From the NCBI GenBank assembly GCA_964486045.1, contig CAZALK010000008.1:32001-96000 (forward strand): a stretch of 64,000 bases of DNA. Reading direction: 5' to 3'. Shown one piece after another: positions 18,583 to 34,460 of the stretch. Each line of letters begins with the position of its first letter. Position 1 is the stretch's first letter. The translations under genes were made by a program, and so were the position numbers. The stretch comes from an uncultured archaeon (lineage in GTDB: Archaea; Asgardarchaeota; Lokiarchaeia; Sigyniarchaeales; SOKP01). The notes beneath the pieces were generated by a model. The model did not search any database, had not been told where the DNA came from, and saw only the letters and a program-made list of their open reading frames with translations.

Positions 18583-19509
18583 GTGAAATATCAAATGGTT
18601 AGTGAAGGGATGAAAACAATAATAAACATGCTTTTCCAACAAGGAGAAGTTGCGACAAAAAAAAGAGTAGAAGAAGGTCGTGCTAAATTTGATCAATTAG
18701 AAGCTATGTTACAAATTCCAAATGATGTAAAAATTGAGAAAATCGAAGTTAGCGGTGTTCCTGCCCTATGGATAAGCACTCCTGAAGTTGTAGAGGAAAA
18801 TATTGTCCTATATTTACATGGAGGAGGTTATGTTCAGGGTTCAATCAATTCACATAAGGAGTTTGGTTCAAGGATTTCTCGGGTTTCAAATTCGCGAGTA
18901 TTATTATTAGATTACCGTCTAGCACCTGAAAATCCCTATCCCGCAGCTTTAGATGATGCGGTTGCTGCTTATAAATGGCTGATCGATAGCCAAGGAATTA
19001 ATCCTAAAAATGTAATAATTGGAGGAGAATCAGCTGGAGGAGGTTTAACATTAGCAACGCTTTTGAGATTACGAGATACTGGCATCACGTTACCTACCGC
19101 AGCAATTATACTTTCACCATGGGCAGATTTACTTATGACTGGAGATTCAATGAGAACAAAAGCAAAAGTAGATCCTCTTGCGAATGCAAGTGACCTTTTC
19201 TTCTTAGCTTCTTTATATATCGGAGAAGATGATCCCAAGAATCCTTATATATCACCATTTTATGCTGATCTCAAAGGATTACCACCTATGTTAATACAAG
19301 TAGGTGGTGCTGAAGTTTTGCTAAACGACGCTACTAGAATTGCAGAAAAAGCAAAAATTGCTGGAGTTGATGTTCTTTTAGACGTATGGGAAGATATGAT
19401 TCATATGTTTCAGATGTTTGCATTTATGGCTCCAGAAGGCCAGAAAGCAACTGAAAAAATAGGAGAGTTTATTCAAAAACACCTAAAAAAAGAAGTTCAG
19501 ATAATTTAG
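18583..19509 (+). CDS. Alpha/beta hydrolase, HSL-family esterase
   Basis: HGGG, DYRLAPE, GESAGG, catalytic E and H near the C-terminus. Confidence 0.92.
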   Translation: MKYQMVSEGMKTIINMLFQQGEVATKKRVEEGRAKFDQLEAMLQIPNDVKIEKIEVSGVPALWISTPEVVEENIVLYLHGGGYVQGSINSHKEFGSRISRVSNSRVLLLDYRLAPENPYPAALDDAVAAYKWLIDSQGINPKNVIIGGESAGGGLTLATLLRLRDTGITLPTAAIILSPWADLLMTGDSMRTKAKVDPLANASDLFFLASLYIGEDDPKNPYISPFYADLKGLPPMLIQVGGAEVLLNDATRIAEKAKIAGVDVLLDVWEDMIHMFQMFAFMAPEGQKATEKIGEFIQKHLKKEVQII

Positions 19510-19594
19510 TATTGAAATTTAATTTTTTTTTTTATCCTCCAGAAATATTATTTCCATAAGATATTTTTGAAATAGAATTTTAATTAAAGTTATC

Positions 19595-20677
19595 ATGGGA
19601 TATGACATTATCTCATTGCCAGTTACAATTCTCTTTATACTAAGTGGATCAGGGTTATTTTATTATGCGATTAGACTCAATCAAAAATATCCAATGGAAC
19701 ACAATTTTATTAACAGTATTTTAACATACTTGTTATGGCTAACAGCAGGAATAATATATCCTCTCTTTTTCTCTGCCTATAATCCGAATATTCGATTTTT
19801 CCAAATGCTGTCAACCTTCTTTATTTGTATATTCACTCCAAGTATAATAATTTTAATTCTGTATTATCAATACAAATTAATTGTAGAGAAGCATCCAAAT
19901 ATAAAAGAAAAACGGAATATTGAAACTTTTTTACAGAGCTTTGGTCAAAAGAACAGTCAAAATTCAGATCAAAGATCAAAAAAACTAAGAACAGATATCC
20001 ATAGAAAAGCATTACCTATATTTCCTGCTGGAATAATAATTTTACTTTGGATTTTTGCAGTATATATTTGGGATGATATCTGGAATGTTAATCTAGTTTG
20101 GGGAATAACTGGAAAGGAATTTGGTAGATTCTTAATTTTAACTGCGGGATATTCGGGAATTTTAGTATTTGGTGCTTTAGATTATATCAGATTATCTTAT
20201 GTTTTTGAAAAAAAGAACCTATTCCATCTTATCCCAGATAATGTTTTAAATCTCTTAAGTAAGTCTATGAGGCGTGAAGAAAATTTTGATTTCATAAGGC
20301 CAACAGTCCTAGTTCTATCATTTGCTCCCATATTTTTTTTTCCATTCTGCATATTTGCAACTTCAATATTAATCGCAACGATTGGAGATGGAGCCGCATC
20401 TGTGTTTGGACTTAGATTTGGGAGAATTAAATTTCCTAGATCGTCTGAAAAAACGATTATTGGATATGTGGCAGGTTTTTTAGCCTCTTTTGGTATAGCT
20501 TTTATAATAATCATATCATTTGAACCAGCTCTGCAAAACATCAAGATTTTGTTAATTAGTATTAGTGGAGGACTTACATTTCTTATAATTGATCTTCTAA
20601 ATCTAAGAATTGATGATAATATCTTAAATCCAATTTTTTGTTCCTTGATAATGGGAGTTTTGTATTTTCTCTTGTGA
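19595..20677 (+). CDS. CTP-dependent polyprenol (dolichol/phytol) kinase family membrane protein
   Basis: Multi-TM; RK..., GDGAAS..G.RFG, SEKT..G, DDN motifs. Confidence 0.75.
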   Translation: MGYDIISLPVTILFILSGSGLFYYAIRLNQKYPMEHNFINSILTYLLWLTAGIIYPLFFSAYNPNIRFFQMLSTFFICIFTPSIIILILYYQYKLIVEKHPNIKEKRNIETFLQSFGQKNSQNSDQRSKKLRTDIHRKALPIFPAGIIILLWIFAVYIWDDIWNVNLVWGITGKEFGRFLILTAGYSGILVFGALDYIRLSYVFEKKNLFHLIPDNVLNLLSKSMRREENFDFIRPTVLVLSFAPIFFFPFCIFATSILIATIGDGAASVFGLRFGRIKFPRSSEKTIIGYVAGFLASFGIAFIIIISFEPALQNIKILLISISGGLTFLIIDLLNLRIDDNILNPIFCSLIMGVLYFLL

Positions 20678-21120
20678 CGATGATTTTAAAATACCAATAC
20701 CTGGCGTAGTTCTAATTTTAAGAAATTAAAGAAATCATGAATAATGAAAGGTAAAAAAAAAAATAGTAAAATAGATTTTGACGCAATATGTAAAAATAAG
20801 CTAAACTGGTTTAACATATTCAGTGATTTCAAACTTATATATTACAATTTGCCTTCTTTTTAATCGATATTTCGCTTTGTTTATTTTAAAAACAATATTT
20901 TACTATTGTGTAGAAGATATAAGACAAATGTTTATTTAAAGCTTTTCTTCATGCTTATCTTTATATCCAACCAAAATATCGTTTAAATAACTAATTTCTT
21001 TGTTATTGAGTTCAATTTTTGAAGGATTTATTGTTAACACATCTATAAAAATAAAATTTTATAAATAGTTATGTTCTAAACATATTGCCACAATATTTTA
21101 AACAATAAATAAAAAATATA

Positions 21121-21564
21121 TTGAGAGTGAAAGTGAAAAATTTGCCTCGTGTAGAGAGAAAAGTGGATATTTCAGCACCTCAAGAAAAGATTTTCAAGAT
21201 AATTGATACAGATCGGGATTATGCTCGATGGAATATTGTCGTGAATGAGGTTACTGAGCTTGGTCCAGGTAACTATTTCTTTAAAACAAATGTGGGAGAT
21301 GTCACGTCAACTCGTGTTGAAACCAATCCGCCTGAGAGTCTTTCTGCGTCTCAAGAAGGAAGCCCAATGACAAGTTTAGGTTATGTATTAAAACCAAAGG
21401 GAGATATTGTAGAAGCTACGATTTGGGCGGAATTCGATGATGCAGGTCAAGAACAAATACTTGGTATGGCTGGGGAGATGCTTGTAAGTAGTTTGAAAAA
21501 ATATGCTGAATACCTTGAAGCTGGAGGAAATCCAGAAGATTATAACAAAAAGAAAAAATACTGA
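21121..21564 (+). CDS. SRPBCC (START-like) family protein
   Basis: ISAPQEKIF...ARWN ... LKKYAE pattern. Confidence 0.75.
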   Translation: MRVKVKNLPRVERKVDISAPQEKIFKIIDTDRDYARWNIVVNEVTELGPGNYFFKTNVGDVTSTRVETNPPESLSASQEGSPMTSLGYVLKPKGDIVEATIWAEFDDAGQEQILGMAGEMLVSSLKKYAEYLEAGGNPEDYNKKKKY

Positions 21565-21582
21565 AATTAATTTATTATTAAA

Positions 21583-22107
21583 TTAGTCTTTTCTTTTATT
21601 TTTTAGCACACTTTTTTCTGCTTCTTCTAAAGAATAAAAAAGATCTCGACCATTGTCATACTTCTCAACGTAGCAGAACCTTAGAAAAAATAAACTTTCA
21701 GGGAAATATTGAATGACTTGTATTTTTTTTATTAAAAGTGAAGGATTTTCATCAATTTTCCCCTGTATTGTTGAAACTACTTCAGGTTGTAGTTTTCTGA
21801 ATTCACTTACAAAAGATAAAAACTTATTTAATGGATCTTGATTTCTATCAACGTTCTCCGTGATAGCATGAGCCCATCCGTATGATAAATTCCAATTAAA
21901 TTTCATTTTAAGCCATTCACCAAAATGTTTGAAAAGAGGAACTCTTACCTCAACGATCGAATGTAATTCTAAACATGAATCATAACCAGCCAAAAACATT
22001 GATAATGATCTGATTGATTTGTCTGGAATGAACATACTTGTACGTTCTTTAATTCTGTCAATCAGATCAAAAATATTTTTCCTTTCAAAATAATTTTTCA
22101 TAGTCAA
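21583..22107 (-). CDS. Hypothetical protein
   Basis: 174-aa ORF just downstream of the polB fragment, same strand. Confidence 0.6.
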   Translation of the reverse strand: MTMKNYFERKNIFDLIDRIKERTSMFIPDKSIRSLSMFLAGYDSCLELHSIVEVRVPLFKHFGEWLKMKFNWNLSYGWAHAITENVDRNQDPLNKFLSFVSEFRKLQPEVVSTIQGKIDENPSLLIKKIQVIQYFPESLFFLRFCYVEKYDNGRDLFYSLEEAEKSVLKNKRKD

Positions 22108-22148
22108 GATCTTTCAACCAAACTCGTTTTTTTGATTTTCTGAATAGT

Positions 22149-22588
22149 TTAGAAAAAAGCATCCATCTTTTTAATACCTTTAACTTCATCAAATGTAATT
22201 CCGAGTGCATCCAACACTTGTTCTAATGCGGATGTCAAGAGCTCCTTATATTTTTTAGTATCAATATCTTGGAGTTTGGCTAATTCTAGTGCTTTTGCTC
22301 CAATAAGACCTTTACTTTTAATAAAACTAATTTTTTCACCCTTTTGAAATTCCCTTTTAGTAATTTTTTTCAATTCGAGAGCAGCTCGGACATGTTGTGG
22401 TATAACCTTAGTATCATTTTTAAGAGCCTTTTTAAGACTCATATTTATCGCGTAATCATTCAAGTTAAAGTATTAGATTTTCGAATTTTTTTGATATTAT
22501 CTCTTACGATTCCAATTATTTCATCTTTAACATTAGTAAATTCTTCAATTTTTGTGATATTTTTTAACATTTCAATTAAAATTGAAAA
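22149..22588 (-). pseudogene. Displaced, frameshifted 3' fragment of family B DNA polymerase gene
   Basis: FSILIEMLKNITKIEEF...KKIRKSNT, 1-nt deletion near 22468, then NLNDYAIN...IPQHVRAA...ALEQVLDALGITFDEVKGIKKMDAFF; aligns to the last ~150 aa of polB (about 61/87 identical by hand in the distal part). Confidence 0.9.
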
Positions 22589-22968
22589 ATTGTGAGAAAA
22601 TTCCCCATATTTGAGATTTGGACAATTTATACAAAACGTTTTTAAATCTGTGATAAAAGATCAACCTATTTATTTTAGAGAAGATTCATAAACTTTACCT
22701 TGACAAAAATATCAAATCTTCATTTTTGTAAATTCTTTTACGTGCTAAAATAAAGTATTCGCTCTCAAACTCTCTAACACACCGTAAAAAGATAATATTT
22801 AAAATGAACAAAAAATCATTCTTAGACTGCTTCAGGGAGTGCACGATGATGGAAAAGTTGTTATGCGAAAAGTATAGAATGATAAAAATTAGAAAGGAAA
22901 TATTTAAACATCCGGATGAAAAGATGATGGGAATTAGAGAATTTTAGATTCCGCTTGACAAAAAATTT

Positions 22969-23862
22969 TCATTGATAAAAAGGAATAATTCTTGCATAGT
23001 TAATATCTAAAAAATGCAAAATCAATTTAAAATCCTTCAAATTCAGAGTATATATCTTATTCTCTGAATTAATCAATAATTCACATATAAAAAAATCTCC
23101 TAGATTAAAGCAATATCGCGTGTGAAAATCATATTTTCTCTTATTAGTATTAATATCTATCAATTTTTCTACTGTTTTATAGAATCGGTCATCTAAAATT
23201 AATTTATTTTTCTCACAAAAACCTTGGGCTTCATTAAGAATAGTACTAAATACTTTTTTATATTTCTTAGTTAATTGTTCTAATTTAAATTCTCTGGCAT
23301 TGCATATTTTCTTCGCACAGCTATTAATATATAAAAATTCATAACAAAAAGTATTTTCATTATATACGATTTCCCACTCCGATCTTGGACATGGATATGT
23401 TAGGTTATTATTCCATTTAGAGATTTCTTCTTGAAACTCTAATAAATCATTAACAATAATATTAAAAGCTGATTTTACTCTATGAATTTGCTTTTTTTCA
23501 TAATTTGGATCAGATTTCTCTACAGGAATTTTATCAATACAGTTTCTTATAATTGTAACAATAGAGGTACAGCGATTTTTTAATTGAGGGCTTCTTTTTC
23601 TCTGGATATATTGGTTAATATCAATCCAAAAATCATCAACATTAAATTGTTTCTTTTTCGAATTTAATTTTTCAAAAACTATTTCCCTTAATTTAAAAAA
23701 TGAATTTAAAATTACTGTTCCTATCTCTGATTTTAAAATCGGATTAATTAAAATGTTATTTTTAAATGTAATAAATTGATTTTTTATTCTGTCTTTCTGT
23801 GAGGACTTACCATATAAATAATACACCAAAACACTTGTATCGGGGATTATAGCAATAATTAT
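22969..23862 (-). CDS. PIN-domain nuclease with large internal insertion
   Basis: Frame upstream of the annotated TTG reads IIIAIIPDTSVLVYYL (PIN DTSVL motif); C-terminal NLGDFFI and IYTLNLKDF match PIN D..I and T.N.KDF motifs. Confidence 0.7.
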   Translation of the reverse strand: MIIAIIPDTSVLVYYLYGKSSQKDRIKNQFITFKNNILINPILKSEIGTVILNSFFKLREIVFEKLNSKKKQFNVDDFWIDINQYIQRKRSPQLKNRCTSIVTIIRNCIDKIPVEKSDPNYEKKQIHRVKSAFNIIVNDLLEFQEEISKWNNNLTYPCPRSEWEIVYNENTFCYEFLYINSCAKKICNAREFKLEQLTKKYKKVFSTILNEAQGFCEKNKLILDDRFYKTVEKLIDINTNKRKYDFHTRYCFNLGDFFICELLINSENKIYTLNLKDFKLILHFLDINYARIIPFYQ

Positions 23863-23915
23863 ACATCACTCATCTCTTTCTATTATTGCTGTTATTTGCA
23901 TTTTATATTATTCAT

Positions 23916-25130
23916 CTAAAGTTCTATTTTTTCTTTAAAATCAACGAATATATGATGATCTTCTCCTATAATTTTGATCGATTCAATATCGTCTTTTTCA
24001 GAAAATTCATCAATTTCTTCAATTAATTTAAAATCAGTAATTTTTGTTTGTATCTCTTCAATTTTTTTTGATTCAGTTGTCTTCTCTCTTCTAATAATTT
24101 GTTTCTTTTCCTCTTTTTTTATACTTCTTAACTCATTTTTAAATTCTTCATAGTCTATTTCCAGTTCTGGCAATTGATCCTTATAATCTATGAATTCAAG
24201 TGAATTTTTTAATTCATTAAAATGTAATCTTAATTTTTCAATAGAGGTTTTATTCAGAGGATAATTTAATTGCAAGGATTTTAGAAAGAATTTCAAAAAC
24301 TCCTTTTTTGAATCAAGACTAGTTAAGTGAGTTTTTTCAAAAGTAAGTACTTCCAATAATTTATATTTCAAGAATTTAAACGATTCATCTGGATCATCTA
24401 TTGAAATGTTATCTATAGTGAAGACTAAATGTTTTTTATTAATTTGACTTTTAGCTTTAATACCTTGACGAATTTCTTCCAAAATTGAATAAAAATGCTC
24501 TTTCTCTATGTTTTTTTCATTTCTACAGAATAAATTCAAAATACCATCAAGATTGCTAAATAATTTAATGATATAGCCTTCATCTAAGCTATAAATCATC
24601 TTTAATATAACTTCTTGATTAAAGAATTTATTATGCGCTATTATTTGTTCTTTAATAATGGATTTCTGGGTAAATTTAGGCTTTAAGTAATAACAAAGTT
24701 GAATAAGATCAGTCAAATGTTCATGATCATAATGTACTGATAATATTTTAATTAGTTTGATTTCCTTTTTGAGGTCAGAATTATTTATATAGTTATCTTT
24801 TAATATACTTTCAATTTCTTTCTTTCTTTCAGGATTTATTTGATATAATCTTTTAGAATCTATAGGAATAAAATTCGAGTTTTTCTCGAATACTTCTTCG
24901 TAGGAAATGAGTTGCTCAGTAATTAAGGGTGCAATATTCGTTTGAAAATTAACTGCAAATGGACCTAGATTATATGAAATGAAATCAAGATCAGATTCAC
25001 CCTTAAGTTCAAATATTTCCTCTAATAAGAACATTAATTTCATTGCTCTTGTTATTAAGGTAGTGTGTACTTTCGAATAATACAATATCAATAAAATCTT
25101 TTCATTAAAATCTAGATTACTTAAGCTCAT
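23916..25130 (-). CDS. Panacea/SocA(DUF4065)/YwgA-like antitoxin domain + helical and acidic C-terminal extension
   Basis: KILLILY...TRAMKLMFLL...FISYNLGPF signature; 14-nt overlap with the upstream gene. Confidence 0.65.
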   Translation of the reverse strand: MSLSNLDFNEKILLILYYSKVHTTLITRAMKLMFLLEEIFELKGESDLDFISYNLGPFAVNFQTNIAPLITEQLISYEEVFEKNSNFIPIDSKRLYQINPERKKEIESILKDNYINNSDLKKEIKLIKILSVHYDHEHLTDLIQLCYYLKPKFTQKSIIKEQIIAHNKFFNQEVILKMIYSLDEGYIIKLFSNLDGILNLFCRNEKNIEKEHFYSILEEIRQGIKAKSQINKKHLVFTIDNISIDDPDESFKFLKYKLLEVLTFEKTHLTSLDSKKEFLKFFLKSLQLNYPLNKTSIEKLRLHFNELKNSLEFIDYKDQLPELEIDYEEFKNELRSIKKEEKKQIIRREKTTESKKIEEIQTKITDFKLIEEIDEFSEKDDIESIKIIGEDHHIFVDFKEKIEL

Positions 25131-26454
25131 TTTCTATTTCCTCCTTTTTCTTTTTTAATAACTCCCAATTATTCATTTTTAAATTTGTACTAAATATTTC
25201 TTTTATAAATTCTTCTAAATCACAATGCAATTGGCGATCTACATTATAAAAATTATGGTTCATCAAAATAATATTTTGTTTGGTCTTCAATTTTTCCTTT
25301 AGAGTCTTTACTGCTTTTCCCCTGAACTTATTATAAGCATTTACATCAACTGGATTTTGGAAATATATATCAAATGCTCTCTGTAATGATTTAATTCTAA
25401 AATCATAACAACTTGAACATTTACAATTATAGTCTAAACTAGGTTTACGCAATAAATCCTCTGAAAACCCTCGATCATTATAAAATTTACCATTTCTTTG
25501 AAAATAAAATCTTCTGGTTCGAGGAACCATAGCAGGAATATTTACATTAAGACCAGGATACCCACTAATTCTTATAATTTTTTTAATATTAGGATTTATT
25601 TTATCAATAAGTCGTGAGCTACAAACACCAATATAAAACACGAATAATTTAGCAAATACTGAATTGAACTTTTCGATTATATCATAAAACTCCTTCATTT
25701 CCTTTTTACTGGCACTAATCTCATTGAAATCTACAATCCATAATCCTATTTTATTAAAGAACTCATATTTCTTTATTATTTCAGTAATATCATAATGATG
25801 TTTCATATAATCTTTTAGATTTAATACAATCATGGGAATATGGTTATTTAAATTATATGTCTTGACATATTTAAGAGATAGATTATATAATTCCTCAATA
25901 GCTTTTTCATTAATACTATTTAATTTTTTAAAAAAAGAACCTTTCTTAGAAATTTTTATTGGAATTGCTGGTAAAAAAGGAATAGTAAAGCAAGAAACTT
26001 TGAAATTATCATGACTCTTAAATAATTTCTTTTCAATTAAAGTCCTCGGTCTATTTTTGTATTTCTCAACAAAATCAATAATCTGAATTGACTCTGATAT
26101 TTCTTTTTTAAAATATTTTTCTAAATTAGCACCTTGAAAATCAGAAACAAATAAACTATAATCTTTTAGAAGTTTTTCTTTTGTTTCATCGTTTAGAGAA
26201 GGAGTTTGAGGATCTATCAGATAGGGGCGAACATTATAATAATTCTTATATAAAATAACCTCCTTATTAAGACTTTCAATTGATTTTATAAAAGATTCAT
26301 CAATTTGCTTCTGTTTGGTTTTTTTGTCCTCTTTGAAGAAATGTCTTTTAGGAACTAGAAATCCCTTGCATAGAGAATGCTTTAAATAGAGATTTAATCT
26401 TTCAATTTCCGTCTTAAATTGAAGTTTATAATATATATTTGACAATTTAATCAT
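25117..26454 (-). CDS. Putative TIM-barrel protein with TGT-like zinc site
   Basis: YLIDPQT, GLWIVDF, RRFY, CKCSSC and distal HN, resembling the CxCxxC...H zinc site of tRNA-guanine transglycosylase-fold proteins; 8-nt overlap with the upstream gene. Confidence 0.5.
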   Translation of the reverse strand: MIKLSNIYYKLQFKTEIERLNLYLKHSLCKGFLVPKRHFFKEDKKTKQKQIDESFIKSIESLNKEVILYKNYYNVRPYLIDPQTPSLNDETKEKLLKDYSLFVSDFQGANLEKYFKKEISESIQIIDFVEKYKNRPRTLIEKKLFKSHDNFKVSCFTIPFLPAIPIKISKKGSFFKKLNSINEKAIEELYNLSLKYVKTYNLNNHIPMIVLNLKDYMKHHYDITEIIKKYEFFNKIGLWIVDFNEISASKKEMKEFYDIIEKFNSVFAKLFVFYIGVCSSRLIDKINPNIKKIIRISGYPGLNVNIPAMVPRTRRFYFQRNGKFYNDRGFSEDLLRKPSLDYNCKCSSCYDFRIKSLQRAFDIYFQNPVDVNAYNKFRGKAVKTLKEKLKTKQNIILMNHNFYNVDRQLHCDLEEFIKEIFSTNLKMNNWELLKKKKEEIENELK

Positions 26455-26890
26455 TTATTTGTTCTTTTAAGATATATCTTATCTTCTGATAATTCGCTTG
26501 GATAAGATATTTACTTTTTTTCGGCTTTAATTCAATGATATTTTTATCTTTTGATACAATTATTAATCCTATCCCTTCGTTAATTAACATATCTCTATCA
26601 ACTTTATCTTCATAATCTTTCCAAATAGCTAATGAATTATAAGGAATTAGAACCCGATTTCCTAAAGTTTGTCCAAATCCTTTTTTCCAATTAAATACTT
26701 TAAATTCTAATGCGTGGGCAGTTCCAAACCGATTATTATACTTTCTTAGTTGAACAAGATCGATTCTTTTTTGATTATTTTTAACTTCCTTAAAGATTAG
26801 GGTTTTGTCGCCTTCTATCAATTTTAAATTCCCGATATAGGTATTCACCATTTCAAATTCTGAAATAATTTGTTGATTTTTGACCAGCAT
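26447..26890 (-). CDS. Small PD-(D/E)XK nuclease-like protein
   Basis: SEFEM helix, KEV, RIDLV, ALEFK..WKKGFGQ, GIGLI. Confidence 0.65.
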   Translation of the reverse strand: MLVKNQQIISEFEMVNTYIGNLKLIEGDKTLIFKEVKNNQKRIDLVQLRKYNNRFGTAHALEFKVFNWKKGFGQTLGNRVLIPYNSLAIWKDYEDKVDRDMLINEGIGLIIVSKDKNIIELKPKKSKYLIQANYQKIRYILKEQIND

Positions 26891-27069
26891 TAATTAATTA
26901 TATTCTATTCAAACTTAAATAATTTCTATTTTAATTAATAGGAGTAAGGAAGATTTATGGTTTCAATTTAATTAAGTGAAAAAGATTTAGTGTCAAGTCA
27001 TTTAAATAGCAGTTAATTAGTTTTTTAATTACTAATAAAATCAAAGTTGAGTTATGAATAATAAAAAAA

Positions 27070-28557
27070 ATGAGGGAAGAAAGGGAAATTAAACGAAACC
27101 ATATCAATACTTCATGTAGTAAAAATGAGTTAACAAAAAACACAGGAAAGGGTAATTATGGGACAATGGATAATTTTTTTGAAGATATTAAATCAGGTTC
27201 TATAGAGGTTGAAAGAGAATATTTTACCAGTAAATCAGGTCTTCCTTATGATGAGGAAATAGTAGTAAAAGATCCAAATGGGATTGTTTGTAAGGTTAAA
27301 ATTGGAAGTATAGAGAATTCATGGAAAAACTTAAAAGTTTTATCAATCAACAAATTTAATTCACCGAAATTTGGTTCACCGAAATTTGTACCGATTATAA
27401 ATTTTTTAAAAAGTGTAACTTCATTTTTATTAAAAATTCGGTTATCAGATGGGAGACAAATTGTCTGTAGTCAGAATCACATTTTTCCTAAAATTGTAAT
27501 TTCTATCAATTTTAAATCATATAATTCTCCAGAAAGCTTCTTTTCAATTAAATATGTGAATGCTAAAGAACTAAAGGAGCGAGATAATTTGTTAGTCTTT
27601 CACAAGATTCCATTGACTTCAAACGTTCCAAAATATATTTTTATTCCTAAACTTCTTAATTGGGAGCATAAATGGATTGGAATAAAAAGAAGTGATTATG
27701 TAAAATTTTCCTATAGAACGAATCAAAGAACTAATAATCCTTTAATACAATTAATAAATTCAAAATTTCAATATTCCAAGGTGGGAAAAAAATATAGAAC
27801 ACTTTGGTCAAATTTATCAAATTCGGAAAAACTTTTTCTTGAAATGGAAGCGAAAAGAAATCACGTTGAAATCTTGATAAAGATCCATGAAAATGTTGGA
27901 TTTTGGTATTCATCAATAGTTCCATTAACAGATGATTTTTTTAGATATTTAGGTTGGTATGTTGCTGAGGGGTCTACAGACAAGAATAGAGTGACTATTT
28001 CTCAATCAAAAGAAAAAAATTATAATAATTGGATTGAAATTATTGATCTCCTTAAGCGATTAGGGTTCCCTGTAAGCATTTGCGCGCAAAATATGATCAG
28101 AATAAATTCAAATGTCTTAACTGAGCTAACAATTGAATTATGCTTAAAATTGGCTCAAAACAAGAAAATTCCTTTAGAATTAATTATGAATAATAGTAGG
28201 ATAAAGTCATTTTTAGAAACATATTATAAAGGAGATGGTTGTCAATTAAGAGGGGAATTAAAGAAATATACAACCACAAGTCAGCAATTAAAAAATGATT
28301 TAGTAAGCATTCTTGGAGCGACAGGACATTTTTGTTCTATTTGGTATCCAAGTTCTTCAGATAATTGTTATCGTATAACCGAAACTGATGGAAAACATTA
28401 TAAAAGAAAATACTTAGGTCTTCTTAAATTCAACAGTACAACTCCCATAAGGATTAAGTCCATAAGAAAAGTTAAAAAAAATTATGATATATTTAATTTA
28501 AAGACTGAAAATGGTTGGTTTGTCTCAACAAACGGAATTTTAGTCCAGGATTCTTAA
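27070..28557 (+). CDS. Stand-alone intein-like protein (Hint + LAGLIDADG/DOD homing endonuclease) with degenerate splicing residues
   Basis: Block A SGLPYDEEIVV (from 27235), block B IVCSQNHIF, LAGLIDADG motifs YLGWYVAEGS and FLETYYKGDG, blocks F/G IFNLKTENGWFVSTNGILVQDS then stop. Confidence 0.85.
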   Translation: MREEREIKRNHINTSCSKNELTKNTGKGNYGTMDNFFEDIKSGSIEVEREYFTSKSGLPYDEEIVVKDPNGIVCKVKIGSIENSWKNLKVLSINKFNSPKFGSPKFVPIINFLKSVTSFLLKIRLSDGRQIVCSQNHIFPKIVISINFKSYNSPESFFSIKYVNAKELKERDNLLVFHKIPLTSNVPKYIFIPKLLNWEHKWIGIKRSDYVKFSYRTNQRTNNPLIQLINSKFQYSKVGKKYRTLWSNLSNSEKLFLEMEAKRNHVEILIKIHENVGFWYSSIVPLTDDFFRYLGWYVAEGSTDKNRVTISQSKEKNYNNWIEIIDLLKRLGFPVSICAQNMIRINSNVLTELTIELCLKLAQNKKIPLELIMNNSRIKSFLETYYKGDGCQLRGELKKYTTTSQQLKNDLVSILGATGHFCSIWYPSSSDNCYRITETDGKHYKRKYLGLLKFNSTTPIRIKSIRKVKKNYDIFNLKTENGWFVSTNGILVQDS

Positions 28558-28607
28558 TAAATTCAAAATTAAATCTTTTCTTATTTTCAATCATTATATG
28601 TGATTTT

Positions 28608-31544
28608 TCAAATAAATCCATCTAATTTTTGAAATTCAAGAGTTTCTAAGCTTGAAATATCAATACCAATACTAAAAGCATCAACAAACTGTTCTAGAGC
28701 TGATCTCAATAGTTCTTTGTATTTTTTCACATCAATATCTTGCAGATTTGCTAATTCTATTACTTTAGCTCCGATTTTATCTTTACTCTTAATAAAACTT
28801 ATCGTTTCGCCTTTTTGATATTCTTTTGCGGTTTTTTTTTTAAATTCTTGAGCAGCTCTAACATGCTGTGGTATTGTTTTTTTATAATTATCAAGCTTCT
28901 TTTGCATAATTATGTTAATTGCATAATCTTTTAAGTTGAACGTGTTGGGCTTTCCGATTTTTTTAAAATTTGAAATAATAAGCTTTTTGATATCTTTCTT
29001 TGCTTTTAAAAATTCATCATAGCTAGTGACCTCTTTAATAATTTCTAATAAATCACTGAAAGCTTTTTTAATAAATTCTGGTGTGTTTTTCTTCTTTGCT
29101 ACAAGGCCTTTCATGTCAATATATTTAGTATCCTTATATACTCCAAGATAATTCTTTTTTCTATCAGAAAGAGCTAAGAATTGATAAGTTTTTTCCTCTT
29201 CCAAGTCAAGATCAAGGGTTTTTTTACTCCAGTCAGTTATTTCACTCAATTGTTCTTTTGAAGGGTTTAAGAGGAAAACAGAATCTGTATCCCCATATAA
29301 AACCTTAATCCCTATTTCTTCAGTTTTTTTTATTGTTTGTTTAATAGAATATTGCCCTATTCCCGTGATGCTTTCTGCTACTGGTAAACAAAACAACGGG
29401 AAATTTTGAGACCCAAAAACACCAAAACTTGCGTTAACAAAAACTTTAAGCGCTTGTTGAATAGTTTGATTATAACTTCTTTGTTTTTCTGTTGAACTTT
29501 TATCTTCTGATTTAGGTTTAAAATACTTAACTCTTATATCCCTGAAAAATCCAACAACATAGGCAAAGATCCCCATCTTTTGAGAGCAAATATGGTATGG
29601 AGAGCCTTTTACTAAATTATCTCGATCTTCTTTATGAGGACAAATAACTGTTTCATAGGAAAGATTGTATTCCTTTATTATTGATGGATATAGACTTGCG
29701 AAATCCATAACAACAACATCAAAATGAATTCCAGGAACAGGTTTTATTACATATGCCCCTTGGAATTTCTTATCGTTCGCGCTAGACATCATTTTTCCCC
29801 CTTTCTTAAGCTCTGAAATCTCAGATCGCCGAGGGATTAAGTAATTCTTCCTACGGTGTTCAAAATGGAAAATATTTCGTATCCATGTTGATATTTGCCT
29901 TCTAACCATTTCATGGACAGGCATTTTAGTTATCCGGCATAACAAAATGATTAAATTCCAAACTAACGAGTTGTTAAATTTTGTCAGTTCTAAGGTTAAT
30001 AAAGAATCTTTCAGGTTATACCAGGAAAGGATATTATAATCCATATCTTGGATTTCTTCCTCATGCTGATATTTTTCCTCTCCCAGAAGAGCAGCACTAA
30101 TAGCATTCAAAGACGAACTTTCATAAGCACCTCCAAAAGCGTATCCAGAGATGCTTCTATTGAAAAATAAATTAAACACGTCAATGTGAATTCCACTCCT
30201 TAGTTCACATTCTGCTTTGGTCATAATACCAAACCCACGTTTAACTTGAATAGGATTAAGGTCTTTATTAACCTTTAGCCTGTCATTTGCCCTATGATAT
30301 AAATAGTTTAAATCAAAATTGTCTCCGTTAAATGTAATAACAACTGGATACTCCCACATTAGGCGAAATGTCTCTATTAGTAAACTTTTTTCAGATTTGA
30401 AGAAGATAACTTTCGCATCAGGAGGAAATTTTTCATGAGGTTTTGTATATTTGTAACCTTCCCTTTCTAGAATATAAACAAGTTTCAACCCATCTGTGGC
30501 AACAAAAGATATACTTATTACTTCCTGTTTGGCTAAGCGAGGGTCTGGAATGCCATGATCTTTAACATCCATACTTACCTCAATATCCATAGCCATACGT
30601 TTGACATCAGGGATTGGAGTAATGAAAATATCCAAAAATGCCTCAGAAAATTCTTGAATCTCGGGGGATTCATCTTTAAATAAATCTCTAAGCTCATTCG
30701 CCACTTTTTTGGAATCTTTATCGATCTTCTCAAAATCTATTTTTTCTAGCTTTCCATTTTTAATACAGTAAATAAGACCGGGGATTAACTGCCTATCGAA
30801 GATATAATTTAAATGATATCGGATATCAGCTTCGTAGGCTTTTTTTCCATTTTCTTCTAAAATAGTACGAATATTTGTCCCAGTGCCACCAATATTTGTT
30901 GGAGTTTCCCCATAAAGCTTTGTAATTTTAATTTCCTTATCGGATAATAAATCAAATTTTTTAATCTCTTCAAATCTTTTGAACCAAGGATATTCAGTTA
31001 ATTTAGTCTTTTCTAACTCTGAAATTGGCTCTTTACTTAAACAGTAAGGTTCATGGTCAGTGGTATCAATCCAAATTTTTATATCGTCTTCGTCTAAATC
31101 ATAGAATTTACAGTATGCTTTATTTTGCCCACCATCATAATCCACATCAAGCAATAACCCTTGATCTAAATTATCTACGATTTTTCCTGTTGCGATTAAA
31201 TAACGAATATATGTCGAAGTTACACCTTCTCTGAGTACTTTATCAAGTTTTACATTGCCTAATTTTAATCCAAAAGGTTCTTTGTTTTCCTTATAAAACA
31301 GATTTTTTGGAATTTCACCACTAACTAATTTTTCTTCAGGGGAAAACTTTTCAATATTTTTCTCTTTAATTGGTTCTGGTTTTTCAGCAGTTTTTTTTTC
31401 TTTAATTTCTTCTTTCGTGGTTACTTTTGCTGGTTCAATTTTCTCACCTTTTTTATCATCTACAAAAGAAAATAAGGATTTTTGCGCTTTGTCTTCAATA
31501 CTCTTCTTATTGCTTTTTTTTGGACTAGGCACTTTGTACACCAA
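28608..31544 (-). CDS. polB: Family B DNA polymerase (PolB1-type), no inteins
   Basis: Exo I DIE, Exo II NGDNFD, Exo III YNLKD; pol motifs DFASLYPS, KVFVNASFG, YGDTDS, KKNY; N-terminal PIP-like QKSLFSF. Confidence 0.97.
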   Translation of the reverse strand: MVYKVPSPKKSNKKSIEDKAQKSLFSFVDDKKGEKIEPAKVTTKEEIKEKKTAEKPEPIKEKNIEKFSPEEKLVSGEIPKNLFYKENKEPFGLKLGNVKLDKVLREGVTSTYIRYLIATGKIVDNLDQGLLLDVDYDGGQNKAYCKFYDLDEDDIKIWIDTTDHEPYCLSKEPISELEKTKLTEYPWFKRFEEIKKFDLLSDKEIKITKLYGETPTNIGGTGTNIRTILEENGKKAYEADIRYHLNYIFDRQLIPGLIYCIKNGKLEKIDFEKIDKDSKKVANELRDLFKDESPEIQEFSEAFLDIFITPIPDVKRMAMDIEVSMDVKDHGIPDPRLAKQEVISISFVATDGLKLVYILEREGYKYTKPHEKFPPDAKVIFFKSEKSLLIETFRLMWEYPVVITFNGDNFDLNYLYHRANDRLKVNKDLNPIQVKRGFGIMTKAECELRSGIHIDVFNLFFNRSISGYAFGGAYESSSLNAISAALLGEEKYQHEEEIQDMDYNILSWYNLKDSLLTLELTKFNNSLVWNLIILLCRITKMPVHEMVRRQISTWIRNIFHFEHRRKNYLIPRRSEISELKKGGKMMSSANDKKFQGAYVIKPVPGIHFDVVVMDFASLYPSIIKEYNLSYETVICPHKEDRDNLVKGSPYHICSQKMGIFAYVVGFFRDIRVKYFKPKSEDKSSTEKQRSYNQTIQQALKVFVNASFGVFGSQNFPLFCLPVAESITGIGQYSIKQTIKKTEEIGIKVLYGDTDSVFLLNPSKEQLSEITDWSKKTLDLDLEEEKTYQFLALSDRKKNYLGVYKDTKYIDMKGLVAKKKNTPEFIKKAFSDLLEIIKEVTSYDEFLKAKKDIKKLIISNFKKIGKPNTFNLKDYAINIIMQKKLDNYKKTIPQHVRAAQEFKKKTAKEYQKGETISFIKSKDKIGAKVIELANLQDIDVKKYKELLRSALEQFVDAFSIGIDISSLETLEFQKLDGFI

Positions 31545-31685
31545 AATGAATTTTAATTATGAACTAAAGATAATTAGTACAAGATTAATTATAATACCAA
31601 CTATTCCTACTTTAATAGTATTACACTTATTTCTAATTTAATTTGCTATAAAAAAAAGTAGACTGAAAAGATTTCCTTTGATATT

Positions 31686-32036
31686 CTATGCAATTTTTTT
31701 GTTTTGAGTAATAATATTCTTTATTTCATCTAATAGCAGAGTTTTCTCAGCGATATACCAGTCAAGTTGGCTTTTTGAAGGATTTTCATGATAAATGATT
31801 TCTGAGACATCTCGAATTTCGTTTTCGGGAGGTTTAAGTAATTCACCATTTACATCCTCTCTTATTAATAAAACAAGATTATCGGTTTCTAAAGGTTGGA
31901 TATCATACCCATTCTTTACATTTTTGTTAATAGTAACACAAAGCTCAGCAAGCCGCCAAATCGACTTCTCTAACGTATCTCCTTTCTTATATATACGAAA
32001 CGCTAATCTAACAACATCCTCTTTGGAAAAAGGCAT
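31686..32036 (-). CDS. Hypothetical protein with two DUF2934-like repeats
   Basis: VVRLAFRIY...WRLAE and IRDVSEIIY...WYIAE. Confidence 0.6.
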   Translation of the reverse strand: MPFSKEDVVRLAFRIYKKGDTLEKSIWRLAELCVTINKNVKNGYDIQPLETDNLVLLIREDVNGELLKPPENEIRDVSEIIYHENPSKSQLDWYIAEKTLLLDEIKNIITQNKKIA

Positions 32037-32081
32037 TTTCTATAATTTTGTAAGTTATTTCTATAATAATTTTGTAAGTTA
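32037..32081. repeat. Imperfect tandem duplication (21/24 bp)
   Basis: tttctataattttgtaagtta followed by tttctataataattttgtaagtta. Confidence 0.8.
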
Positions 32082-32116
32082 TAAAAAAAAAGGATATGTT
32101 AACTTTTAACTATTTG

Positions 32117-32156
32117 TGTTGATTTTTATACGTTTTGAAACCACAAAATTAAAAAT
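32117..32156 (+). repeat. 40-bp direct repeat, left copy
   Basis: tgttgatttttatacgttttgaaaccacaaaattaaaaat; 37/40 identical to 39179-39218. Confidence 0.85.
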
Positions 32157-32387
32157 AGATATTATTTTGTTATGATATCGATTATTATGTATTTATGGTC
32201 AAAATAAGGTATGTAATTTTGATTATTTACCATAGCTCCAATTTTTTTTCAGTAAAGATGAAATCTTTAATATTAAAAGCAGTTTCTTGTGAAATTTTTC
32301 CCATAAATCTAATTTTGCGAGTAATTTCTCGTTTTCATTAGCAATCTTCACAGCTAACTGATTAAGACCAAATTTTTTTTGATTCAA

Positions 32388-33209
32388 TCAAACCTTTCTT
32401 GCAACAGAAATAAAGGTTTTTGCAAAAATCAATCCCTGCCATTTATTATAAAATTTTTCCTCTAATTTATTTCGAAAATTAGTTTGCTCAGAAGTTGTAA
32501 ATGACGGAGGAAGTATATGGAAATTGTAGTAAAATTGTTTCTTTTCATTAAAGCTATACCGCTTTAGTTTTTCTTTATATATTAACGGATTCTCAGATTT
32601 CATGGTTTTTTCAGATTTTGGCTGTTGCGGCGCTGTAATTGCCTTTTTTAGTTTGGCTTTGTATCTATTAAAAATATCCTTATCCACTATTACCTTATTA
32701 ATTAATTTCTGTGAGATAAGCTCAATTGTATACTTGTCAAATGTAAATAAATCAAAAAACAGATTATATTGTGAGGTTATTAGATAACCATTATCCTTTA
32801 AAGTACGATAGCACTCTTTGTAAACCCTGGATTCATCTTTAATATAGGGGAGCACCCCATTAAGCATAATAACATCAAACTTTTTGTTTTCAAATATATT
32901 CATGTCAAGAACAGAGCAGTGTATTATATCATGTTTTATTTTTTCTTTTACTGCTTTTTGCCTAGCATACTTTAACATTTTCCTTGATAAATCAATTGCA
33001 GTACAATCCCAGCCCTGTTTTGAAACTTCTCTGGCTATATAACCAGATCCACATCCAGCATCCAATATTTTTCCTTTTTTCAATTTACTTAGAAACCTTA
33101 GAATAATCTTTGCTCTATGTTTATTTGCAGGATAATTATTTTTTTTTCCGTGATAAGAGTTATCTTCGTAGTTTTCTGCAACATCATCCCATATCTTTAT
33201 ATCGTCCAT
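32388..33209 (-). CDS. Class I SAM-dependent methyltransferase
   Basis: ILDAGCGSG, IDLS..ML, FDVI, LKDNG. Confidence 0.9.
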   Translation of the reverse strand: MDDIKIWDDVAENYEDNSYHGKKNNYPANKHRAKIILRFLSKLKKGKILDAGCGSGYIAREVSKQGWDCTAIDLSRKMLKYARQKAVKEKIKHDIIHCSVLDMNIFENKKFDVIMLNGVLPYIKDESRVYKECYRTLKDNGYLITSQYNLFFDLFTFDKYTIELISQKLINKVIVDKDIFNRYKAKLKKAITAPQQPKSEKTMKSENPLIYKEKLKRYSFNEKKQFYYNFHILPPSFTTSEQTNFRNKLEEKFYNKWQGLIFAKTFISVARKV

Positions 33210-33279
33210 AATATCCCTCCAAAATTTAATTTTGAATAAGTAATTAGGAGTTAAATTAAACAGCGCAATTTAGCTTAAT

Positions 33280-34460
33280 TTAATTCTTCTTACTTCTTTC
33301 TTCCTCTTCTTTGTGCTAAGTGTCAAATTGTTTATCTAACTCGTCCATAAAATCAGATATTGTCTCTTACTTAACGATTAAGAATTTCCCATCAATTATA
33401 AAACCAAATTCGAGGGCCCATTCGAATATTTTTGCACTAAATCTATCCTCGTCCATTTTAAGAGCCTTTCTCATCATTTCAAACTCAATACGCGTAGAAA
33501 CTTCCATCATCCTCTGAACCTTCTCTAATTTTCTACGGGGAGTTCTAATTTTAGTCCCTCGCTTCTTTTTTCTTTTATAAATTATCATCCCAGCAATGAA
33601 CATTACGCTGATCACTATACTAACAACAACTATTATTACAACGGCAGCTTCTTGAGTGGCAGCTTCTTGAGTGGCAGCTTCTTGAGTGGCAGCTTCTTGA
33701 GTACCACCAATATCCTCATTATTGCCGCTAAAACTGTTATTTGAAATTTCATTACATTTAGATTCTTCATCTATGTAAATACCAAAATTATTAGCAATTA
33801 TATTATTTACCGAAAAGATGTTATTATCACTATGGTCGAATTATTAACGTTGTTATCGACAATGATTGTATTATCACTAGTGTGTGACGCTATACCCATT
33901 TTGTCATTATTATTGACGGTGTTTCCCAAGATAGTGTAATTAGAACCCCCTAAGTTTATACCAGATCGCATATTGTAGCTTGCGATGTTTCCTGAAGCTG
34001 TATGGTTATTACTATTATCATATATATTTATTACGTAACCTCTATTGTAGCTTACGTTGTTGTTAATAATTTATCCGTTATCAACAAGTCGAAATTTTAT
34101 TCCATCCTCACCTGCATTGTAGATAGTGCAATTTTCGATTTTAAAGTACACGCTTGAATCTTGAATCCAGAAAAAATTTCCCGAACCTTCACAATCTATT
34201 ATTAAATTCTCTATAACGTATGGGTTGGATTCAGTGCCTGAACCTGTACAAATTCCAGCAGCTTTAGCAGCAGACCAGTCGGAATTACCGTTTAAGTAAA
34301 TTTTTTTTGACACTTTAGAGAATCTCAAACTTTCGCTATCTAAGTTTATATCATCCTTATAATCCGAACTTTGAATACTACTTCCAATTTTAAAATTGAG
34401 GTTATAGATTATCACTGGTGTTAATACGAACCCAAGTCCTAAAACCAAAAGGATTAAATT
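33280..34460 (-). pseudogene. Degraded NosD/parallel beta-helix surface protein with C-terminal TM and cytoplasmic tail
   Basis: N-terminal piece CTGSGTESNPYVIENLII; Asn-rich middle broken by stops and frameshifts; TM and tail with in-frame TAA (33367) and a later TAG before the apparent original stop near 33280. Confidence 0.75.
33643..33702 (-). repeat. Four perfect 15-bp tandem repeats encoding (TQEAA)4
   Basis: ggcagcttcttgagt x4. Confidence 0.95.

Follow-up and report, generated by a model that had tools for sequence, protein, structure and literature searches.

A polB intein derivative as the probable basis of a WHO-like homing element that replaces the 3′ end of a DNA polymerase gene in Promethearchaeota

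Among the homing systems described so far, the closest to the locus reported here are the WHO elements of Torulaspora and Lachancea yeasts (Coughlan et al. 2020, PMC7282813; Osborne, Monnin and Wolfe 2026, 10.64898/2026.08.13.744650). The locus shares with them an extein-less, intein-like LAGLIDADG gene situated downstream of an essential host gene, a substitute for the 3′ part of that gene, carried in the element together with displaced 3′ fragments, some of them frameshifted, a host gene whose two ends have different phylogenies, a sequence correlate of resistance at the target site, and a patchy distribution that includes pseudogenes. The gene hybrids made by mobile ORFs in fungal mitochondria, in atp6 of Allomyces macrogynus and in atp6, atp9, cox2 and nad3 of Glomus (PMC3630166), are similar in that an endonuclease ORF comes with a foreign C-terminal gene part, the native C-terminus being displaced downstream, where it resembles the gene of the relative more closely than the inserted part does. 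No prokaryotic example of the third, i.e. WHO-type, class of homing element was found in the literature that we covered, which included few subscription papers, and the strategy was found described only in fungi. By nearly every genomic test that we ran, the archaeal element is WHO-like, and yet it lies outside the WHO/HO/VDE protein family.

The features on which the argument depends lie in the following order in the window, i.e. the whole stretch of 64,000 nucleotides of archaeal DNA that was analysed.

22149..22578, minus strand: stranded 3′ end of a polB of ancestral type, some 143 codons long, with a 1-nt deletion at 22469 (frameshift); presumed downstream homology arm
22969..23829, minus strand: cargo ORF of 286 aa, no match
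23916..25130, minus strand: cargo ORF of 404 aa, N-terminal part matching the PADLOC DarG profile (E 1.7e-5)
25117..26454, minus strand: cargo ORF of 445 aa, predicted TIM barrel with a conserved CxCxxC...H; resemblance to TGT is a lead only
26447..26890, minus strand: cargo ORF of 147 aa, PD-(D/E)xK-like motif seen by eye, no library match
27070..28557, plus strand: splicing-dead intein-derived LAGLIDADG endonuclease gene, 495 aa, extein-less (ORF list, domain search, tree, AlphaFold)
27163..27180, plus strand: PIP-box-like motif within the 56-aa leader, which is disordered; shared only by this sub-lineage and one further member
27238..27597, plus strand: N-terminal Hint region with blocks A and B, Gly replacing Cys1 (alignment)
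27922..28443, plus strand: LAGLIDADG endonuclease region, motif 1 at 27946-27972 (E300), motif 2 at 28213-28239 (D389), K365; omega 0.11
28444..28554, plus strand: C-terminal Hint region with blocks F and G, the block-F Asp changed to Asn and HN to QD, then one more residue and the stop
28608..29429, minus strand: 3′ part of polB that the element brings as a replacement, 273 codons counted from the Pol-b site; its C-terminal tail is not the ancestral one
29415..29445, minus strand: empty Pol-b intein site, junction 29430/29429, putative ancestral target; Ala at -1, Val at -3, Phe at +2
29430..29850, minus strand: co-conversion tract above the site, with 86-92% identity to L145/G107, the donor-like hosts, and 68-81% beyond
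29430..31544, minus strand: host 5′ part of polB (family B DNA polymerase I type), intein-free

The 495-aa ORF is matched by the Intein_splicing, intein_Nterm and LAGLIDADG_3 models of Pfam/NCBIfam. After a disordered leader of 56 residues it has the whole layout of an intein, and an earlier note, made from the letters of this DNA, had already described such a layout without a host protein and with a stop one residue past block G; ORF and alignment agree with that description, and no N- or C-extein of polB was found around the ORF in any frame. Its AlphaFold model (mean pLDDT 83, pTM 0.81) has intein endonucleases as best structural matches, namely 2cw7 (E 1e-23), the Tli and Pho VMA inteins, PI-SceI and PI-PfuI, and this fold, two helices with their acidic residues and a conserved Lys place the protein among the LAGLIDADG intein endonucleases. 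It is not a functional class 1 intein: there are no in-frame exteins, and other residues stand in place of those needed for splicing. As compared with the 14-15 in-polB relatives in the alignment, position 1 is Gly (G57) instead of Cys, block F reads FN (N476) instead of F/Y-D, and block G reads QD-S-stop (Q493-D494) where the relatives have HN-S/C and then polB, so that the reported alteration of the splicing residues is real. The block-B His is present in the window protein (H137) and absent from 10 of 12 clade members. It had also been noted that the frame is intact with both LAGLIDADG acids kept, and these (E300 and D389) turn out to be invariant in the free-standing members; the polB gene found to adjoin it (28608-31544, minus strand, 50 bp off and convergent) is, as had been said, free of inteins.

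Neither the stop nor the layout results from an assembly error, because a 14.7-kb contig from the probable source sample, which is not an independent one, matches 19000-33672 without one difference; an assembly artefact was ruled out on this ground. A broken fragment of a longer, intein-containing gene was ruled out as well, because no extein lies nearby and the homologues form an intact, extein-less clade under purifying selection, with omega far below 1. Two other candidates were rejected: a class 2 or class 3 intein with an odd first residue, since exteins are lacking and block G is degenerate in various ways among the members, and a split intein, with the host gene as two ORFs that bear intein halves, since polB is whole and intein-free. 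There is a single copy of the endonuclease gene in the window's genome. A scan for bacterial promoters was uninformative, with 16 matches against 13 expected.

Homology search, in which the names of the homologues place the window's genome in Promethearchaeota, brought two groups of relatives, 11 extein-less proteins (62-92% identity) and 15 true polB Pol-b inteins (37-53%); the latter, which sit after the Asn-Gly/Asn-Ala of the polymerase motif and before Ser/Cys-Tyr-Gly, settle which inteins and which host site are the nearest, a question raised in the earlier note. In the maximum-likelihood tree, 13 free-standing proteins form a single clade (support 100/99), sister to the in-polB intein P0015, and among the sequences found this extein-less clade is confined to Promethearchaeota; viral contigs gave one distant match of 28% only. 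Every free-standing member has Gly at position 1, the block-F Asp is gone from all of them and block G has degenerated along different routes, while E300, K365 and D389 are invariant. Codon models put omega at 0.11 in the endonuclease, 0.14 in the linker and 0.23 in Hint, all far below 1, so that the suggested dN/dS comparison of Hint and endonuclease (0.23 vs 0.11) speaks for purifying selection on both; in five close pairs the omega of Hint is 1.6-3x that of linker and endonuclease. For the in-polB inteins omega is 0.03 in both parts, a value that comes from three distant sequences with saturated synonymous sites and is indicative only. The combination of dead splicing residues, invariant nuclease residues and this omega pattern shows that the nuclease is maintained, the Hint domain being relaxed yet constrained, as would suit a scaffold. 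Such a role of Hint is known for PI-SceI and HO. We take the tree, the alignment and the codon models to demonstrate that the endonuclease gene descends from an intein at the Pol-b site of polB, and that it has lost splicing residues and keeps its nuclease residues under purifying selection.

Some relatives deserve mention for their own sake. Two members carry an N-terminal zinc-ribbon fusion (P0005:1-240 and P0008:1-243), a parallel to the zinc finger gained by WHO/HO; a stand-alone paralogue of this domain, 35% identical, is found in the window's genome (G000:C15:39551-40219), and an atlas search with the N-terminal domain of P0005 gave only scores under 0.9. Another protein, P0037, is a 252-aa fragment less than 50% identical to the others that stops just past a degenerate block G, and possibly stands for a third free-standing lineage.

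The leader of the window protein was said in the earlier note to contain a stretch, GTMDNFF, that resembles a PCNA-binding (PIP) motif and might target the nuclease to the clamp. The motif does occur at 27163-27180 and may be real in the window's sub-lineage, judging from the leader sequences, but it is no property of the family, being present in 3 of 11 leaders (the window's, that of P0001, found also in L145 and L147, and loosely that of P0003). Complexes of PIP motifs with PCNA have already been solved. For the window protein and the PCNA of its genome, complex prediction gave weak support, 0.38 vs 0.10 for the best control (partner pLDDT 41-49, runs agreeing in at least 50% of contacts), but predictions that pass in this way are wrong more often than right, and the result was therefore not used as evidence. 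The second cargo ORF of G104 and G055 also ends with a PIP-like motif.

At every locus with flanking sequence, the endonuclease gene stands tail-to-tail with an intein-free polB. Nearly all polB genes of Promethearchaeota that are non-carriers end in one conserved tail, and the tails of carriers differ from it. In the window and seven other groups of loci (G072, P0004, G053, G049, P0001, P0002 and L145), the conserved tail is found again as a duplicated polB 3′ fragment, stranded past the endonuclease gene on the polB strand; it is absent at the loci of G061, P0003 and P0006, and two more contigs are too short to show one. The stranded tail of the window is 87% identical to the native tail of the non-carrier G107 and 72% to the working tail of its own polB. 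Between the old tail and a 360-aa membrane gene, which directly follows polB in G107, the window has a 174-aa ORF and a 147-aa SRPBCC-like ORF (21121-22107).

The polB gene itself is a chimera of two parts. Window and G107 are 93% identical over the 100 codons before the Pol-b site and 70% identical after it, with a change point at codon -5 of the site (interval -9..+1), and in G061 and P0004 compared with G087 the change point is at codon -6 (-9..-1). L145 and G107 are 96-98% identical far upstream and still 91-92% close to the site, but 68-74% past it; the stranded tail of L145 is 90% identical to the tail of G107. Control pairs of non-carriers had no comparable drop of identity. Phylogenies of the two parts agree with this: in the polB 5′ tree, carriers sit with different non-carrier relatives, and in the 3′ tree they regroup across genera, e.g. 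the window (g1) with G125 (g12) and G049 (g11). A single host clade of carriers is rejected (AU p 2e-41, 8 changes). In a Mantel test, the identity of the endonucleases correlates with that of the 3′ part of polB (r 0.47, p 0.006) and not with that of the 5′ part (r 0.02, p 0.43), although the endonuclease and 3′-part trees are not wholly congruent (G049/G053), some shuffling of modules having taken place. Trees and identity profiles demonstrate that the endonuclease gene, which lies inverted behind polB, moves from one host lineage to another together with a foreign 3′ part of polB, a tail of the ancestral type being left downstream.

A few polB genes outside this scheme were met on the way. 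Six loci of a g12 subgroup that includes G143 (L075, L078, L090, L093, L095 and L121) lack the element, but their long polB tail groups with the tails of carriers (support 89); this subgroup either supplied one of the replacement tails or once had the element and lost it long ago. In G143 the intein lies inside polB. In L087 (G112), polB has an in-frame TAG shortly past the Pol-b motif, which is an error or marks a pseudogene.

These data point to the old Pol-b intein site, and not to the polB tail, as the candidate target of the endonuclease. The Pol-b motif is invariant across 89 non-carriers, except for -1 (Gly/Ala/Ser) and +1 (Ser/Ala). Residue -1 is other than Gly in 10 of 10 carriers tested, which have Ala or Ser, and in 23 of the 89 non-carriers, the other 66 having Gly; the Fisher p of 6e-6 is overstated by kinship, and of 7 independent pairs 6.4 are concordant and none is opposite, which gives a median p of 0.016 in the sign test. 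The closest in-polB inteins are all inserted after Gly, as are the four that come from genomes, and G055, which has lost the endonuclease, has Gly at -1. More distant Pol-b inteins insert after Ala, so that Ala at -1 would be protective in this sub-lineage only. Variation at -1 and +1 of the Pol-b motif is possibly an escape from the endonucleases of inteins or of the element; Ala at +1 would also block splicing of an intein.

We consider it very probable that the locus holds a WHO-like homing element of Promethearchaeota, of independent origin, which cuts the Pol-b site and replaces the 3′ end of polB, the cutting being deduced from the sequences. The protein would still recognise and cut the empty Pol-b site (the Asn-Gly/Ser-Tyr-Gly codons) in element-free alleles, and the break would be repaired from the carrier chromosome, one homology arm being polB sequence above the site and the other the stranded tail fragment or the downstream genes. 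In this way the recipient would acquire a 3′ part of polB that resists cutting, together with the endonuclease gene and any cargo enclosed by the arms; polB would stay functional without any splicing, and the dead Hint domain would be retained as a scaffold for structure or DNA binding. Once the element is fixed, the endonuclease would decay and be lost, polB keeping the foreign tail.

One set of observations sits less easily with a cut at the Pol-b site. In six loci (G072, G125, G055, G104, G073 and G049) a single change point is best placed 85-143 codons further down, and no stranded tail extends back to the site, the longest having about 143 of the 273 codons; the 130 codons proximal to the site are never found in stranded tails. 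An endonuclease retargeted further down in polB (85-125 codons past Pol-b, or near the tail), with the change at Pol-b as a leftover of its origin, would account for this, and yeast WHO proteins did shift their target relative to the intein ancestor (PMC7282813). We nevertheless judge such retargeting unlikely. Among the carriers that have a close non-carrier relative, the best resolved (window, G061, P0004, L145 and P0008) all break at the Pol-b site, the association at -1 persists over independent pairs, and residues of the DNA-binding linker and endonuclease are shared with the in-polB inteins. Later recombination can explain the downstream change points at the six loci, because four of them lack the endonuclease or are old. 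Cutting at the Pol-b site has its own cost, since a 5′ erosion of the stranded tail must be assumed when no such tail reaches the site.

What lies between the endonuclease gene and the old tail varies from locus to locus, from zero to four genes, several islands being without cargo, and the endonuclease is the sole gene common to the islands. In the window, the cargo consists of four ORFs, behind which the old tail lies; its GC content is 0.25 vs 0.31. This four-gene low-GC operon (22969-26890, minus strand) was also found near-identical in the runs X3, X4 and X8. It is possibly a defence or toxin-antitoxin system; fold search with the 445-aa ORF returned generic TIM barrels and did not single out TGT. 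The cargo of P0001, L145 and L147 is one ORF of 341-363 aa. G072 (L002:7987-9258) has a PemK/MazF toxin, a 181-aa ORF and a winged-helix (HTH) gene between the old tail on the endonuclease side and the downstream genes. Low GC and variable, defence-like cargo could mean that the endonuclease rides on an integrative island which enters the 3′ end of polB by site-specific recombination and leaves the gene whole, in the manner of prophages at attachment sites, and two relatives (G104 and G055; L092 and L096) do have the new tail, cargo ORFs of 374 and 357 aa and the old tail without any endonuclease. This is very improbable all the same: there is no integrase or transposase in any island, no att-like or terminal repeat was found, the two polB tails being only 72% identical, the islands share no gene but the endonuclease and several have no cargo at all, and viral contigs have no match beyond the distant one of 28%.

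Comparison of L145 with the window shows a recent movement of the element. Endonuclease and polB 3′ part are 94-99% identical, identity is 86-92% over about 420 bp above the site and then falls to 68-81%, and the polB 5′ part of that host is only about 77% identical to that of the window. From this profile, the host of the window received the block from a donor like G107/L145, together with an upstream co-conversion tract. A run of another study, X4, covers only 22551-29763, cargo included, at about 96-97% identity, with almost nothing outside at 88% or more; missing cover in X4 proves little alone, but it agrees with L145. Degenerate copies form the other end of the series. L158 has an endonuclease copy with a deletion and a frameshift; in G104 and G055, as already mentioned, the endonuclease is gone; in G125 there is the new tail alone; and in G048 the first 140 bp past the polB stop (L084) contain an inverted 79-bp relic of the endonuclease and then a 51-bp relic of the tail, i.e. 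the end stage of decay. Read as a series, these loci are the cycle of invasion, decay and loss that is proper to homing endonucleases; an empty-allele joint across the island was not seen in the contigs examined. That the protein is a domesticated DNA-binding protein or host nuclease (cf. WhiA, HO), inherited vertically beside polB with the tail duplication as an unrelated old insertion, is hardly credible and already largely refuted by distribution: the intact frame, the purifying selection even on the dead Hint domain and the zinc ribbon with a host paralogue gained by two members would suit it, but the clade occurs in only 5 of 161 genomes of the class, in two genera and scattered over host lineages, a near-identical block is shared by hosts that are 77% identical, and relatives have pseudogenes and relics. 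The proposal of the earlier note that a stand-alone homing nuclease mobilises the island is thus upheld by the clade, the chimeric polB and the block shared across species, cleavage remaining the presumed step, and the element can be called real, intact and mobile on the strength of these genomic comparisons.

A second, different arrangement was found in G009, which belongs to another family (L135:820-7610, also L168). Its polB has a 166-aa mini-intein at Pol-b with intact splicing residues, and behind polB lies a convergent 1020-aa ORF that ends in a splicing-dead Hint and LAGLIDADG region. This endonuclease is outside the clade of the window, as grouping with it is rejected (AU p 0.0014; the branch is long and there is one genome), and no displaced polB tail was seen at the locus. 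By analogy, G009 is a candidate for collaborative homing with a mini-intein in the place of the intron (PMC2790892). On balance, we favour the idea that in Asgard archaea non-splicing homing arose at least twice from one polB intein: once as an active, cargo-carrying and integrase-free cutter of Pol-b that swaps the last 270 codons across species and genera and drives escape substitutions at a polymerase active-site motif, and once as the pair of mini-intein and free endonuclease in G009. If true, this would show, with the ancestors extant, how an intein becomes a WHO/HO-like gene.

The consequences go beyond the locus. DNA has been transferred recently, and genes converted, between Asgard species whose polB is only about 77% identical, and in these archaea polB is chimeric and a misleading phylogenetic marker. 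The element would offer a route for moving defence-like cargo without an integrase, and the extein-free proteins are candidates for long-site meganucleases.

How the element relates to the known systems can now be stated more closely. For free-standing phage homing endonucleases (intronless homing by SegF, MobE; PMC2790892), to which the locus had been likened in the earlier note, the likeness is that the gene adjoins its target and spreads by co-conversion, but these enzymes are GIY-YIG or HNH proteins, not derived from inteins, and they come with no duplicated, displaced gene end; the yeast WHO elements, which carry a replacement 3′ part of the host gene, are the closer parallel, and collaborative homing fits G009 better. 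The mobile ORF hybrids involve LAGLIDADG or GIY-YIG endonucleases of the intron type, without Hint, which are co-transcribed in the same orientation and reside in organelles. The polB Pol-b inteins of Promethearchaeota and further Asgard archaea (P0012-P0026) are the direct ancestors, with 37-53% identity over Hint and endonuclease, the same catalytic residues and the same fold class as 2cw7 and PI-PfuI, but they lie in frame inside polB, with Cys1, TxxH, the block-F Asp, His-Asn and Ser/Cys+1 all retained. Yeast HO is likewise a stand-alone, non-splicing intein derivative with Hint and LAGLIDADG; it is, however, domesticated and does not move its own gene, whereas the archaeal element is mobile and decaying. 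From the WHO elements themselves, the archaeal one differs in several respects: it resides in an archaeal chromosome with polB, and not FBA1, as host gene; it comes from a polB Pol-b intein and not from VDE, its apparent target being the ancestor intein's own site; it has no C-terminal zinc finger (3-5 CxxC in WHO), an N-terminal zinc ribbon occurring in two members only; its block G is present but degenerate, it is always inverted and it carries unrelated cargo; and it is single-copy, no clusters having been seen. Because both the intein ancestor and the probable target can be identified, unlike for WHO/HO, the transition from intein to stand-alone gene is directly testable here, in what would be the third class of homing element, defined in yeasts, arisen independently in archaea.
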